NCBI GenBank assembly: GCA_963707915.1
Contig: OY970178.1
Coordinates: 1,952,001-2,016,000 of the forward strand
Length of the DNA: 64,000 nucleotides
Origin: Candidatus Eiseniibacteriota bacterium
GTDB taxonomy: Bacteria; Eisenbacteria; RBG-16-71-46
Direction: 5' to 3'
In this document: positions 37,917 through 58,108 of the stretch, one piece after another
How the letters are laid out: each line of letters opens with the position of its first letter
Position numbering within the stretch: position 1 is the first letter of the stretch
Program-made: the position numbers and the translations under genes
Notes under the pieces: generated by a model
What the model was told of the DNA's origin: nothing
Database searches by the model: none
Seen by the model: only the letters and a program-made list of their open reading frames with translations

Positions 37917-38774
37917 CTACCGGCGCAGCCAGACGATGGGCCGCCGCGGCGCGCCGCCCTCTTCGCCCGCCGGCTTCGCCTTCAGCTCGCGATTGCCCGC
38001 GTCGATCTGGTAGGCCCAGTCGAGGGTCACCTGGGTCGGGCCCACGGCGGTGATGCGGAACTTGGCGAAGTGGTTGTCACGGGTCCAGACCACGTAAGCG
38101 TGCCCAACGATGGCCTCGACCGTCCCGCTCGGCGACCAGCCCGATTCGGCATCCGGGGCGAAGTCCACGGCGTCGAGCGAGGAGACGTAGCCCGCGTCCT
38201 GGATGTCGGTGGACGTGCCGGACGCAAAGACCTGCTGGTAGGCGTACCCCAGCGAGTCCACCCAGTAGCCGAAGAAGATGTCGGCCGGCGCGTCGATGGT
38301 GTTGGTGCGCGCGAAGGCCGAGAAGTCGTAGCCGATGTTCGTCTCGTAGACGAGGAAGTTGTTGAGCACCAAGCCGGCGCCCGCAGGCCGGGGCGTGTCG
38401 AAGACATCGTCGTAGGACAGGTCGCTCTCCGCCCCCGCCCGGTTCACCGCGGCGACCGCGAAGAAGCGGGTGGCGCCGTTCGCGAGGCCGGTGACCACGT
38501 ACTCGACGTACTGGGCCCCCGCCGGGGCCGGGATGGCCGCGATCCGCGTGTACTCGCAGCCCGTCCCCCCGCAGGGCCCCTCGTAGATGCGGTAGCTGAC
38601 GACGTCGGGCTCGGTGTTCGCCAGCCAGACCAGCGTGACCTGGCCGTCCCCGGTGACGCTGAACAATCCCCGCGGCGCGGCGGGCGGGACGATGGGCGCG
38701 GTGGATTCCTCCCGGCAGCCGGCAAGCAGGACGCCGAGCAGCATGAGTGGCAGGAGCAGCCTGTTCATCGTCAT
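37917..38774 (-). CDS. Lipoprotein with fibronectin type III domain
   Basis: LLAGC lipobox; PAAPRGL..GDGQVTLVW..YRIY..AVAAVN..GAES; GGAGG RBS. Confidence 0.85.
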   Translation of the reverse strand: MTMNRLLLPLMLLGVLLAGCREESTAPIVPPAAPRGLFSVTGDGQVTLVWLANTEPDVVSYRIYEGPCGGTGCEYTRIAAIPAPAGAQYVEYVVTGLANGATRFFAVAAVNRAGAESDLSYDDVFDTPRPAGAGLVLNNFLVYETNIGYDFSAFARTNTIDAPADIFFGYWVDSLGYAYQQVFASGTSTDIQDAGYVSSLDAVDFAPDAESGWSPSGTVEAIVGHAYVVWTRDNHFAKFRITAVGPTQVTLDWAYQIDAGNRELKAKPAGEEGGAPRRPIVWLRR

Positions 38775-38826
38775 CCCTCCCGGTCGGGTGTGGTCACGGC
38801 GGGTCTGGTCGCCTGCATCATACTTG

Positions 38827-38841
38827 GCAACCGTCGTGCCA
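38827..38841 (-). promoter_or_regulatory. Sigma54 promoter of the lipoprotein-DUF4384-PorV operon
   Basis: Perfect TGGCAC-GACGG-TTGC; IHF-like CAA-N4-TTG at ~38879-38888. Confidence 0.8.
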
Positions 38842-39184
38842 TGCCACAGAGCCCGCTAGCGCCGGCGGGGCAGCGTCGCAACCCCTTGCGGATCAAAGCG
38901 GGAAACGCACGGAGTCGCCCCGGCGGAAGGCCCGCGGGGCGACTCGATCGTGCGGCCGGGACGCAGGTGTGAGCGCTGCGCCACACGTGCCTCTAGGAGC
39001 GACAGGACACCGGCCAGTTCCGGACGCAGTCGACTGCGACATCCCCCAATGTCCGCCAACTACGTCCTGGGCCGGTGCCCTGAAACCCTGAGCGGGCCGG
39101 TTCTGCGCGCTGAGATGCGAAGACCGGGTGTGCCTGGCTGCTCGGCGTTGTCGCCGGCTCGCTTCGGGTGAATCGCTCGTTATC

Positions 39185-39325
39185 CAAGCTAGGCGGGTGC
39201 AGGAGGCGGTGCGTTGTCTAGTGACTGGGGCTCGTACCCTCGACCGGGTCCCCCGCATTGCCGCCTAGCCCAGATTCTCATCCGGTGGTGCCACCGGACT
39301 TGATTGGAGGTCCCCCCCTCCGCTG
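39185..39325 (-). ncRNA. Candidate sigma54-dependent structured RNA (3' end uncertain)
   Basis: Lies downstream of a -24/-12 promoter; hairpins GGAGG/CCTCC, TCCGGTG/CACCGGA and GCTAGGCGG/CCGCCTAGC; no credible ORF. Confidence 0.4.
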
Positions 39326-39335
39326 GGCAGCGAAT

Positions 39336-39351
39336 AGCACGCGTCATGCCA
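39336..39351 (-). promoter_or_regulatory. Sigma54 promoter
   Basis: TGGCAT-GACGC-GTGCT; IHF-like TCAA-CGCG-TTG at ~39379-39389; AT-rich tract to ~39560. Confidence 0.65.
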
Positions 39352-39648
39352 TCGATTCGTCAAGCCGCGCCTATTCTCTCAACGCGTTGCACCGCAACTG
39401 AATGCGTTATGCGCCACGGCCACCGACCGACCCCGGCGACGGCCCGGAACAGGCGAAATCTATCAAGAACTTTGATGGTTCTGCGGACCATGGCCTAACC
39501 ACATGGAACGCATGGTCTTCGATGCAAAGACAATTGATAGGGCGATTGGCAACGGAAGTGCGAGTCGGAGCTCTGGCGGGACACCGGCGTGGAACGCCGG
39601 AGCGGGACCCCGGGGGGCCGGGCCGGCCCGCCGCGGGGAGGACGCGGA

Positions 39649-42600: not shown

Positions 42601-42738
42601 GGCGGCGCGATACTCCTCGAGCGCTTCCGAGAAGTTGTCAGCCGCCAGATGCAGATCGCCGATCGCTTCGTGACGGCCGGCGCCGGTACGAGCGGCGTCC
42701 GCTGCGCGAGCCAGATCGGGGGGGATCTCTCTCTGCAC
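39649..42738 (-). CDS. TPR-GAF-AAA+ sigma54 enhancer-binding protein
   Basis: About 520 aa of TPR-like repeats (ALNNLGLVY, QNLGLIRY), GAF, GETGTGK, GAFTGA, HTH; no receiver domain. Confidence 0.93.
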   Translation of the reverse strand: MQREIPPDLARAADAARTGAGRHEAIGDLHLAADNFSEALEEYRAALSAVGPDAPVERVRILLRVAETHTARGDYESAVAALREARAAARLLGDPRQAANIAAHYAAALIQQGQYRRSRRYAHYAYAVLRDTDEHRTVGQVTATLGLCATRQGRSAEAIDWLQNAAATFRRIDDTDGLVTALNNLGLVYKNLREWREATRFLEQALRLDERAGLYSRMRGHHQNLGLIRYRLGQWDLAEENFRQSLRISRETGHVQGEAAALLATGLLARRRRQLESAEENFRRALELAGSVGALREATLAREFLGELALDRGDAMAALALLEPALDEARRAAPHGDLVAELETRTGLALLAAGRASEAQAHLARGAALAAQLGDSIEAAIADRALAQLDAVRGAAPGMQVKLLGAAQAFEDLGETYELAATLAGWGEFLLLLPASVRLRLPLEPVADAAKRAATLFRQLGVVSLASESLLTLARLETEREHYDQALGLLEQAELWLLEAGSPAGGRAEALRREIERQYVAVSLSTSNEFRALEDANRLFRETSDMNGLLAQTVKLAVENAGGDRGFVAFSSGGMRLDVVAQHGLGRDRARRILRALEEAVGPRLAESGPVFSSRVAADPRFGAAVADALESVASLVCVPLNFPSQAVGLVFVDRLNDNLLGPFKQRDVNLLAVLANSAAVAIVEAQRSLLLVENRELRDKLKPSAGMERVVTASREMKGLLALLSKVGDSSATVLFMGETGTGKGLLAQVVHESSNRRDRPFVQVNCAALPESLLESELFGYVHGAFTGAVRDKQGLFEEAEGGTIFLDEIEKVPESVQAKLLHVLDRSEIRPVGATRSKRVDARVICATGTDLRERIREGRFLEDLYYRLNDITVRVPALRERREDIPVLSQHFLGVYSRQMEKDLRGFSPEVMQLFLSHQWRGNVRELDKTVKRMVVLADQGDQLGIELLPPEMREPATRSAAPGEGPGEAGQSLRSSVSELERRVISEALDRHRWNKAKVARELGLSYPTLLSRIRTLELERRRS

Positions 42739-42844
42739 TTTCGAACCCTCGAGTCACATCACCCGGTTGGACATCCCGGTGGTTCGACTCCGGGAGGCCT
42801 TTGGTGCCGCGAAGCGCTTTGGAAGTCCGTTCGATCCGTCGGGA

Positions 42845-43162
42845 CTACCTCGCTCCGAGATATCGATTGGCCCACATCCTGAAGATCCAGCGCAGCCACG
42901 GGTCGGTGGCAGGGCCCCCGGTATGAGCACCCTTCCCACGCGGGACCGGCGACATCGAGCCCTGCGCGAGCGGATGCGGGGTCTGACCGACATCGGGCTC
43001 CCCGGAAGTCGGAGCAGCCGGCGGCTTCGACACGCTCGCGAGCGACGAGGCGGCGGACGGTGTGGCCGCCCTCCCGTCCGCGAACGCGGTCGACCAGCCT
43101 GCCGCGGCGACCACCGAGAGCAGGACCAGCAGGAGCAGGAGTCTGTTGCGATCGGAAATCAT
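42845..43162 (-). CDS. Small secreted peptide (105 aa) upstream of the TPR regulator
   Basis: Signal peptide ending AFA; low-complexity body with SGEPDVG; amphipathic WLRWIFRMWANRY tail; GGAGG RBS. Confidence 0.75.
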   Translation of the reverse strand: MISDRNRLLLLLVLLSVVAAAGWSTAFADGRAATPSAASSLASVSKPPAAPTSGEPDVGQTPHPLAQGSMSPVPRGKGAHTGGPATDPWLRWIFRMWANRYLGAR

Positions 43163-46110: not shown

Positions 46111-47624
46111 GTGAGCCTCCGCGCCCGCCTGATCGCGGCCCTGCTGGCGCTCGCGCTCCTGCCGACCGCGGTCTTCACCACCTTCACGCTGATCGAGTTG
46201 GACCGTGCCACGCAGGGGTGGTTCCGCCCCGGCGTGGACCGCGCGCTCGAGTCGGCCCAGCAGGTGAGCCGGACCGCGCTCGCGCGGATGGAAGCCACCT
46301 CGCTCTCGCGGGCCCGCGCCTGGGCCCGCTGGGCGACCGGCCCGGAACTCGACCTCGCCGGCCACACCCGTGCCCGCGCCGGGTTGCTGGAGGCGGGACT
46401 CGACTTCCTGCAGATCTACGGCCGGGTGGACGGCCGCTGGAGACTGCTCGAACAGGTGGTGCCCGAGGGGACGCCCCGGCTTCGCGGGGCGGACCTCTCC
46501 GCCGACCTGGACGCCGCGCTCGCCGGCGACGGCCTGGTCCGGTCGAACCACGGCGCGCTCGCCGGGGTCGCCCGGGTGGACTCCACCCACGCGCTCGCGG
46601 CGGGCATGCGGGTGCCGGCCGGCTTCTTCGCCGACGTGGAGCGCGTGAGCGAGGGACGCGGCGCGTACAGCCGGCTCGGCGTGATGGTGGACGTGCAGCG
46701 CCCGCTCACCTGGCTGCTGGTCGGGGGGCTGGTGCTCCTGCTGGGCGCGCTCGCGCTGTTCCTCGCCCGGGCGCTCGCCCGTCCCATCGCGCGTCCCCTC
46801 ACCGAGCTGTCGGCCGCGCTCGACCGCGTGGCCGACGGCGACCTGCGGGTGCGCGTGACCCCGCGCGGGGCGCGCGAGTTGCGCATGCTCGGCAGCGCCT
46901 TCAACGCCATGACCGCGCGGCTCGAGGAGGCGCGCACCGCGATGGCCGAGGCCGAGCGCGAGGCGGCCTGGCGGGACGTGGCGCGCAAGCTGGCGCACGA
47001 GTTCAAGAACATCCTCACCCCGCTCAAGCTCTCCCTGCAGCTGGTCGAGGCGGAGCTCGCGTCCGCGCCCGGGCCGCGCCGTGACACCGGCACGAACCTC
47101 CAGGCCGCCCTCGACGAGGTCGCGCAGCTGGCGCGGCTGGCCGAGCAGTTCTCCCAGTACGCGCGCCTGCCCGAGCCGCAACTGGAGTCGCTCGACCTGG
47201 CCCAGGTGGCCCGTTCGGCGGCGGGCCGCCCGATGTGCGAAGGTGTGGCGATCGCCTGCACGACCGATGAACCGGTGCCGGTGCGGGGCGACCGCGTGCT
47301 GCTGGCGCGGGCCGCACACAACCTGGCGCTCAACGCATGCGAGGCCAGCCCCGCGGGCGCGGTGGTCGAGATCGCCGCGCGACGCGAGCACGGTCACGCG
47401 GTGCTCGAGGTGCTGGACCGTGGCCCCGGCCTGCCCGCCGGGCTCACCGACCGGCTGTTCGAGCCCTACGTGAGCACGAAGCGGCGCGGCAGCGGCCTGG
47501 GTCTCTCGCTGGTGCGGGACATCGCGCGGCAGCACGGCGGGACGGTGTCGCTCCAGGACCGCGCGGGCGGCGGGGCGTGCGCACGGCTCGTGCTGCCGCT
47601 GGCGAAGGAAGGCGAGGTCTCTCG

Positions 47625-47628
<4 letters not shown>
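46111..47628 (+). CDS. HAMP sensor histidine kinase (NtrY-like)
   Basis: Two TM segments, HAMP, AWRDVARKLAHEFKN. Confidence 0.9.

Positions 47629-48971
<1,343 letters not shown>

Positions 48972-58031: not shown

Positions 58032-58108
<77 letters not shown>

Follow-up and report, generated by a model that had tools for sequence, protein, structure and literature searches.

The present study reveals that a 64,000-nt window of a Candidatus Eiseniibacteriota genome (contig OY970178.1, positions 1,952,001 to 2,016,000) holds a sigma54-driven, structured non-coding RNA that adjoins the gene of its presumed activator, an assignment confirmed by comparison of homologous sequences. The RNA probably pairs with the ribosome-binding region of its activator's mRNA and damps its translation, as Qrr does on luxO, apparently without Hfq. 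A Qrr1-like small RNA next to the activator had been proposed in a preliminary description of the locus; the comparative data bear this out, and the analogy now extends to the predicted feedback pairing. Eisenbacteria are abundant soil and water bacteria, and literature searches turned up nothing on their sRNAs. Searches on Eisenbacteria small RNAs or RNA motifs, whose coverage stopped short of the supplements where motif collections may sit, found no paper describing this RNA among those listed, which included a survey of CsrA. Our study adds a new sRNA family that spans almost a whole uncultured phylum and comes with a named, directly testable target. The features are listed in Table 1.

Table 1. 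Features of the RNA locus, with positions counted from the first letter of the window
Feature	Position	Strand	Remarks
Control region of the downstream lipoprotein operon	38826..38985	-	TGTGGCG..CACA element 38985-38968 and sigma54 promoter 38841-38826
Non-coding RNA gene, ~331 nt	38995..39325	-	Predicted start 12 nt past the -12 C; 3′ end = D2
D2, long terminator-like hairpin	39005..39080	-	Apical loop ACAYUGGGGGAUGU (39052-39039)
Linker motif CACCCGGU	39123..39130	-	Tentative complement of ACCGGGUG in the activator 5′ UTR
P3, long rod	39183..39274	-	Basal helix invariant and with G-U pairs; CGAGCCC in the apex (39241-39227)
P2, variable hairpin	39281..39298	-	Some homologues without P2; three covarying pairs in the alignment
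P1 hairpin GGAGG/CCUCC, loop G-run + A	39306..39321	-	Near-invariant; the stem change seen in f12 is compensatory
Sigma54 -24/-12 promoter of the RNA, TGGCAT-N5-GTGCT	39336..39351	-	36/36 family loci, fixed spacing
Palindromic enhancer-like site, TATAAA-N5-TTTATA, proximal copy	39461..39477	.	Best-scoring site of the 3.6-Mb genome
Palindromic enhancer-like site, distal copy	39523..39539	.	Third-best site genome-wide
TPR-GAF-AAA+-HTH sigma54 activator, 1029 aa	39649..42738	-	Pfam; presumed activator, predicted target
Predicted seed site, activator codons 5-8, AUCCCCCCCGAU	42715..42726	-	C6 loop on GAUC/GAUC stem
Activator SD region GAGGGUUCG (42750-42742) and upstream site (42767-42760)	42741..42768	-	Predicted partners of P3 apex and linker
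Secreted 105-aa pro-peptide, G(E/D)PD core	42845..43162	-	Candidate signal precursor; upstream of the activator

The RNA gene occupies the region between the activator gene and a lipoprotein-like gene (37917-38768). In the source family, the activator lies upstream of the RNA in 35/36 loci and the lipoprotein gene downstream in 34/36, the misses being contig ends. The sigma54 promoter sits where the preliminary description had placed it and is kept in all 36 homologues, starting 28 to 30 nt ahead of P1 in each. Both conserved domains were also found in 36/36, and the RNA measures 320 to 450 nt, bar one homologue with an inserted ORF. Folding z values were -6.2 for the whole 331 nt (39325-38995; 0/100 shuffles as good), -4.4 for 39325-39180 (0/200) and -6.6 for D2 (0/200).

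The RNA consists of the 5′ hairpin P1 with a GGGGGA loop, the variable P2, the long rod P3, a linker and the terminator-like D2 with a second G-loop. P1 and P2 are the two hairpins with which the transcript had been predicted to open, and the 9-bp stem described earlier (39269-39261/39196-39188) is real, being the middle of the longer rod P3. The alternative partner noted for this stem is there in the source genome, but a second exact partner of the 5′ strand is kept in 0/36 homologues, which gives the implied conformational switch no support. Similarly, GGGGGACC occurs twice at this locus of the source genome as claimed, but twice in domain 1 in just 1/36. The earlier description had overlooked the palindromic enhancer (39461-39477 and 39523-39539) as well as a second G-loop, which is conserved and lies in D2 (39052-39039).

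Covariation in the aligned loci supports these stems. In P3, counted with P1 and P2 left out, 97% of the cells were paired and 38 double changes were seen, and 0/500 shuffles reached the paired-cell and covariation scores, the structures being derived from the same alignments as were scored. D2, whose structure also came from the alignment scored, had double changes at 16/23 pairs, 93% of cells paired and 75 double changes in all (0/500 shuffles). The basal helix of P3 contains 93 G-U against 1 A-C, which fixes the minus strand as that of the RNA. The helix sequence and apex of P3 are invariant in all 36 family homologues. The apical UACGA/UUCGA may be T-loop-like, and the CGAGCCC of the apex is complementary to the activator SD region. 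When compared with the 16S 3′ end, the 3′ strand of P1 equals the anti-SD core. An intramolecular pseudoknot between P1 and the P3 apex appears improbable, as the source family offers just four G-C pairs for it and a 7-nt linker in one homologue (L033) makes the contact hard.

The transcript might instead serve the downstream lipoprotein operon as a structured 5′ leader or riboswitch, or encode a small protein. Such a role would fit with the shared strand of RNA and lipoprotein gene, with a terminator that is weak in the source genome, where an intrinsic-terminator scan called none, and with the 124-aa ORF between the two domains of L026. However, the downstream gene has its own sigma54 promoter in 35/36 homologues (here at 38841-38826, 480 nt after P1) and a different upstream element, TGTGGCG..CACA, in 30/36. 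This element and promoter of the downstream operon mark out the RNA as a separate transcription unit. Furthermore, a U-rich tail follows the closing hairpin of D2 in 22/36 homologues, and several loci of families f10 and f14 keep the RNA next to a different downstream gene. The 30-aa ORF from ATG 39281, put forward earlier as a possible explanation of the region, is present here but not conserved, with an in-frame ATG in 3/36 and the stop in frame in 18/36. A leader or mRNA, the former having been the alternative in the preliminary description, is thus highly improbable, and we treat the RNA as an independent unit.

Some features around the RNA deserve mention. A strong second hairpin lies past the downstream enhancer (38945-38912, minus strand) and has a U-tail in many homologues; it may be a back-up terminator after read-through, giving a ~420-nt form. 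The ORF of L026 (G034:C162) is Cys-rich, has a strong SD and encodes a hydrophobic stretch at the N-terminus. Its insertion implies that the domains tolerate ~600 nt spacing, and they may act or be processed separately. In L249 and L257 (f10, f14), an RNA of ~110-130 nt is directly followed by a different conserved ORF that replaces the lipoprotein gene. A receiver-type second sigma54 activator with a kinase at 47337-48971 (plus strand) is a candidate to act on the lipoprotein promoter through its TGTGGCG..CACA element, and a tRNA gene was found at 58032-58105 (plus strand). No known RNA family was matched at the locus, the point on which an Rfam check had been suggested: at gathering and E-value thresholds, neither the window nor 12 homologous loci outside the source family gave a match, the best E-values of 4.7-6.6 falling to unrelated families. 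The 6S RNA of the source genome (RF00013) lies elsewhere, at C1:810963-811183, and blastn found no second copy of our RNA in that genome.

The palindrome TATAAA-N5-TTTATA recurs upstream of the RNA class-wide. A motif search that forces one site per sequence gave every one of the 36 family loci a best score within 9.8-22.9 bits, and the commonest position of the palindrome in homologues is ~-189. The genome ranking given in Table 1 was obtained with a matrix trained without the source genome, and none of the other top-25 sites genome-wide is near a sigma54 motif. From these sites we infer that the neighbouring activator drives the RNA through the palindromes, possibly as its only sigma54 output. 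Between enhancer and promoter, CAA-N4-TTG at 39380..39390 (minus strand) is presumably an IHF-like site, judging by its sequence. Elsewhere in the source genome, the leader behind a strong sigma54 site (G000:C1:508819, plus strand) has ten letters in common with the 5′ side of the P3 apex; we take the gene behind it to be type IV pilin-like from its N-terminus.

The RNA is distributed across nearly the whole phylum. A DNA search of 61 genomes matched 35/36 other members of the source family, with only short and weak matches outside it, and a pattern scan of the species collection returned 76 stretches, titled mostly Candidatus Eisenbacteria. The exact promoter-plus-P1 pattern was present in 144/172 phylum genomes, against 5 hits in 4 genomes for the backwards control. 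Most genomes missing it belong to families with a variant P1 or promoter. The promoter, together with P1 or a clear variant of it, was present at all 60 orthologous activator loci from 16 other families, whereas the 6 paralogous activator loci have neither. Among 49 metagenome hits, 38 stand behind the activator, 6 are short of upstream DNA and 5 are without a proper -12 element. In most loci checked, the RNA lies ~200-350 nt behind the TPR-GAF-sigma54 activator. Outside the source family its length ranges from ~110 to ~500 nt, and D2 is found in about half of the families. Database cluster searches with the downstream gene returned Fn3-like lipoprotein clusters.

The start region of the activator gene is the predicted target. 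Codons 5-8 read ATY CCC CCY GAY in 47/50 loci. Pro6-Pro7 is encoded by CCC-CCC in 45/47 and by CCC-CCT in 2/47, compared with CCC-CCC for 154 of the 3357 Pro-Pro pairs genome-wide; the other Pro codons in the same activator gene region are CCG (89), CCC (62), CCT (16) and CCA (5). The C-run is placed in a GAUY-C6-GAUY hairpin in 42/47, with an unpaired probability of 0.90, and is unpaired in 44/47. In the modelled fold, the exposed C6 loop would be ready to kiss a G-loop. The SD motif GGGYUCR is present in 57/77 activators. In the source genome the arms of the RNA are collinear on the leader, P1 on +9..+21, the P3 apex on the SD and the linker on -30..-17, with hybrid-only energies of -19.9, -13.5 and -18.1 kcal/mol, respectively, and -14.5 kcal/mol for D2. 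For the linker motif and its 5′ UTR partner, 77 RNA/activator pairs have both in 49, one alone in 11 or 9 and neither in 8 (Fisher p 0.025, ignoring kinship).

Conservation of the C-run could alternatively be caused by the cis hairpin or by an SD-sequestering fold. In a rival reading, pairing turns activator translation on, as the RNA would undo a cis fold that ties up the SD with the C-run, a positive feedback resembling DsrA/rpoS. In several predicted folds, the C-run or CGAUCCC does bind the GGG of the SD, and the activator SD is only half unpaired (0.49). However, the C-run for the most part lies open in a loop, and in f4, f6, f7, f9, f11, f13, f14 and f18 the SD or spacer itself is part of the duplex, which would block the ribosome. 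Such an activation appears very unlikely to us, and damping of translation remains the preferred reading.

Loss of the C-run was compared with loss of the D2 loop over the same 77 pairs, in which near-duplicates may remain and from which 19 incomplete rows were set aside. Both are present in 71 pairs, a weakened run faces an intact D2 loop in 4, neither is found in 2, and the C-run stands alone in 0. Two of the four weakened runs (UCCCCCAG) retain 8-bp pairing with the D2 loop. Both elements were lost in G082, G076 and G069, which form one clade (99/91) whose sisters retain both. By this phylogeny, the joint loss apparently happened once, on a branch that evolves fast. The clade has kept P1 and the P3 apex, and because P1 survives, the co-loss implicates D2 and not P1.

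Energy alone does not single out the activator. In a scan of 2127 crude start regions, it ranked 22, 78 and 181 of 785 in its part for P1, D2 and apex, respectively. Many UCCCCC sites tie in such a scan, and C-rich spacers after the SD are not enriched (23 seen against 18.7 expected, of 1994). The best P1 target match, a Peptidase_C25 gene at C1:3009134, was rejected, as a conserved sigma70-like promoter follows downstream of its site, which is found in 1/29 orthologues. This gene (G000:C1:3009134-3013423, plus strand; L323, L327-L356) encodes 1430 aa of the Peptidase_C25/FlgD_ig type, with a TTGACC-N17-TAGACT/TACACT promoter in most orthologues. As this promoter ends a few bases before the ATG, the mRNA is nearly leaderless.

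Cognate pairs of RNA and activator were also compared with non-cognate ones. After removal of 13 close relatives, 47 of the 60 other-family loci were used together with 14 source-family pairs, 17 families in all. Starts were set by anti-SD energy, four of them hand-corrected. With families that are not independent draws and a -30..+25 window chosen after the sequences had been seen, cognate pairs exceeded other-family pairs in family-level permutation for P1 (p 0.0016), for D2 (p 0.004; 8 families) and for the remainder of the RNA (p 5e-5 with accessibility, p 0.09 without it). Double-centred tests gave 0.003 for P1 and 0.00015 for the rest of the RNA. Control windows in the coding region were null (p 0.12-0.88), and a window further upstream gave a signal for P1 only. 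The signal survives most windows, P1 being null only for 0..+25. Leaving out one family at a time raised p to at most 0.048 for P1 and 0.003 for the body, and dropping f4, f12 and f13 together gave 0.033 and 0.031, respectively. A first test of P1 in a wide window (-110..+45) was weak, with 6/17 families at p<=0.05, and a variant P1 was better than the consensus P1 on its own leader in 3/11 cases only.

The cognate duplexes measure 12 bp in f4, 9 bp in f11 and f12, 8-10 bp in f14, 11 bp in f13 and 11-12 bp in f6, f9 and f18. Families without a P1 site (f4, f7, f11, f12, f14, f15) match at the P3 apex, the 12 bp of f4 lying over the SD, and families without an apex site (f5, f6, f8, f9, f13) have P1 or D2 matches. 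The changed P1 of f13, f12 and f18 faces changed leaders. In f10, f17 and part of f18 no activator site was seen, and P1 is invariant even in such lineages. These data provide a rare comparative view of sRNA-target co-evolution in which pairing has moved from arm to arm, and the natural compensatory variants already define swap experiments.

A held-out set was drawn from 18 metagenome loci with a called start; it comprised 8 lineages, as the rest resembled groups already used. These lineages were mostly null, with the cognate pair top-ranked in 1/8 for P1 and 2/8 for the body, one of these body matches probably lying beyond the RNA end. Both body matches ranked within the top 5%. The metagenome locus L294 has a 15-bp P1 duplex, and another held-out lineage has an 11-bp site outside the window, seen by eye. 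In L267, L283 and L294, which form one lineage, a near-perfect P1 site (11-15 bp) lies apparently 43-50 nt inside the activator CDS, which hints at cleavage instead of ribosome blocking, or else at a start further downstream.

If the RNA served some other protein or RNA as a scaffold or decoy, with the T-loop-like apex and the G-loops among its features and with weak or absent activator pairing, this would explain why the P3 helix sequence and apex are invariant in 36/36 with fixed G-U pairs, and why P1 is invariant where the activator site is absent; the top genome-wide P1 match is also not conserved. In contrast to a fixed protein site, however, the apex sequence varies between families and tracks the cognate RBS. 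We therefore consider a scaffold or decoy unlikely.

Another possibility is a CsrA sponge of the CsrB/RsmZ kind, in which GGA-ending loops titrate CsrA and the mRNA matches are incidental. CsrA is intact in the source genome and in 64/80 genomes, GGA is kept in most P1 variants, and f13 lacks both GGA and CsrA. The D2 loop also resembles what we take to be the CsrA SELEX consensus, RUACARGGAUGU, with a G insertion. However, whereas CsrB, RsmY and RsmZ have many GGA loops, the Eisenbacteria RNA has just two conserved ones. Furthermore, P1 is perfect in f10 (CsrA in 0/6 genomes, which are 93-100% complete) and in f4 and f6 (0/1 each), and the D2 loop is lost in three genomes that retain CsrA. 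A sponge would, moreover, leave the cognate complementarity unexplained, and we assign it a very low probability. The csrA gene of the source genome (G000:C1:1186135-1186380, minus strand) is flanked on one side by a small-GTPase-like ORF and on the other by a sensor kinase/sigma54 regulator cluster, as judged from translations. Two csrA copies occur in five genomes, and csrA was not found in f10 or f13.

We thus favour the following mechanism. The TPR-GAF-sigma54 activator would bind the two TATAAA-N5-TTTATA palindromes and fire the sigma54 promoter of the RNA. The RNA folds, as covariation shows, into P1, P3 and, in about half of the families, the terminator D2, each displaying a single-stranded loop. 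As an independent, trans-acting small RNA, it would then pair through these loops with the initiation region of the activator, a step that is well supported by the comparative evidence, with a mixed result in the held-out lineages. The pairing sites span -30 to +21, so that they would most likely keep ribosomes from loading and thereby create a negative feedback. Qrr requires Hfq; repression of the activator is probably Hfq-independent, and Hfq (PF17209) was not found in the source genome (G000, 94.8% complete). The RNA is a candidate for Hfq-free loop-loop regulation.

Feedback can hardly be the sole job of the RNA, because the enhancer is directed at this RNA alone and lineages without an activator site still have an invariant P1. 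A feedback circuit without further output would serve no purpose, and the retention of P1 in those lineages makes further targets likely. Most likely, these would be read by the P1 G-loop together with the anti-SD strand.

On the input side, the candidate pro-peptide ORF was called in 50/50 family loci and in 33/47 other-family loci, the rest being mostly short of upstream DNA; in f11 its core is GDND/GDGD. The pro-peptide has no Pfam match, and database cluster searches returned only Eisenbacteria clusters, below 0.9. Binding of its core to the TPR part was predicted at 0.52, against 0.00 for the best control, with contact agreement of at least 62% and partner pLDDT of at least 41; this mark was reached by 116/157 solved and 2/215 mismatched pairs, and 18/157 of the former and both mismatches were at 0.60 or under. 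In the RRNPP family, the gene of a TPR sensor stands next to that of a secreted pro-peptide, an arrangement also seen here. A sequence search of solved structures with the TPR part returned generic TPR, kinesin-light-chain and LGN matches only. The synteny and the predicted binding lend weak support to a peptide input to the activator, and the peptide circuit suggested in the preliminary description remains a lead. In that case, the RNA would form the output of what may be a system of peptide communication. Among the papers listed in literature searches, titles and abstract openings showed no RRNPP/sigma54 fusion of this kind.

More speculatively, the phylum as a whole may possess an RRNPP-like, peptide-sensing sigma54 activator whose sole transcriptional output is one chaperone-independent, modular sRNA, with three loop arms swapped in use over 17 families keeping their grip on the RBS while the invariant P1 reads another regulon. 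We regard this complete picture as conceivable rather than probable. If true, it would be a quorum-sensing design joining a Firmicute-type peptide input to a Vibrio-type sRNA output in an uncultured diderm phylum.

The closest known arrangements also involve sigma54 activators. In excerpts of the source on Vibrionaceae, Qrr1 is described as an sRNA gene beside that of the sigma54 activator LuxO, whose mRNA it represses in a negative feedback within a signal-sensing context (PMC3262071). The Eisenbacteria locus shares the sigma54-promoted RNA beside an activator, and a pairing on the activator mRNA is predicted for it. In contrast to Qrr, its RNA is 110-500 nt long and multi-armed, with loop-displayed seeds and no Rfam match; its gene lies downstream of the activator on the same strand, in a genome with no Hfq found. 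Unlike LuxO, the activator has TPR, GAF, AAA+ and HTH domains and no Response_reg. In Myxococcales, Pxr is described in the parts available of two papers as an sRNA encoded 260 nt downstream of the sigma54 activator Nla19 (PxrR), with its own sigma54 promoter, a functional 5′ stem-loop and a host without Hfq (PMC5568312, PMC5684412). The own sigma54 promoter and the distance to the activator (~200-350 nt in most of our loci) are alike. However, the first loop of Pxr is C-rich, going by a primer sequence (PMC5568312), whereas the P1 loop is G-rich, with no Rfam match, and the same excerpts state that pxrR is not a predicted Pxr target (PMC5568312, PMC5684412).

CrcZ of Pseudomonadaceae is, as far as the source excerpt goes, an RNA of several hundred nt forming its own unit downstream of the sigma54 activator CbrB (PMC8871633). 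CrcZ sequesters Hfq/Crc, whereas in the source genome no Hfq and no Rfam match were found, and the conserved parts of our RNA are paired stems with G-rich loops. In Sinorhizobium, an excerpt of the source describes a double-negative loop in which NtrC of the NtrBC system represses NfeR1 (PMC10746234). For the Eisenbacteria RNA, in contrast, activation is proposed, and the predicted target is the activator itself, an echo of NfeR1-ntrB. The RNA therefore fails as a member of the Qrr, Pxr, CrcZ and NfeR1 systems. The P1 loop and 3′ strand come close to the reverse complement of the myxobacterial Pxr first loop, as given by the primer (PMC5568312); these mirror-image seeds on two activator-adjacent sigma54 RNAs are probably a coincidence.
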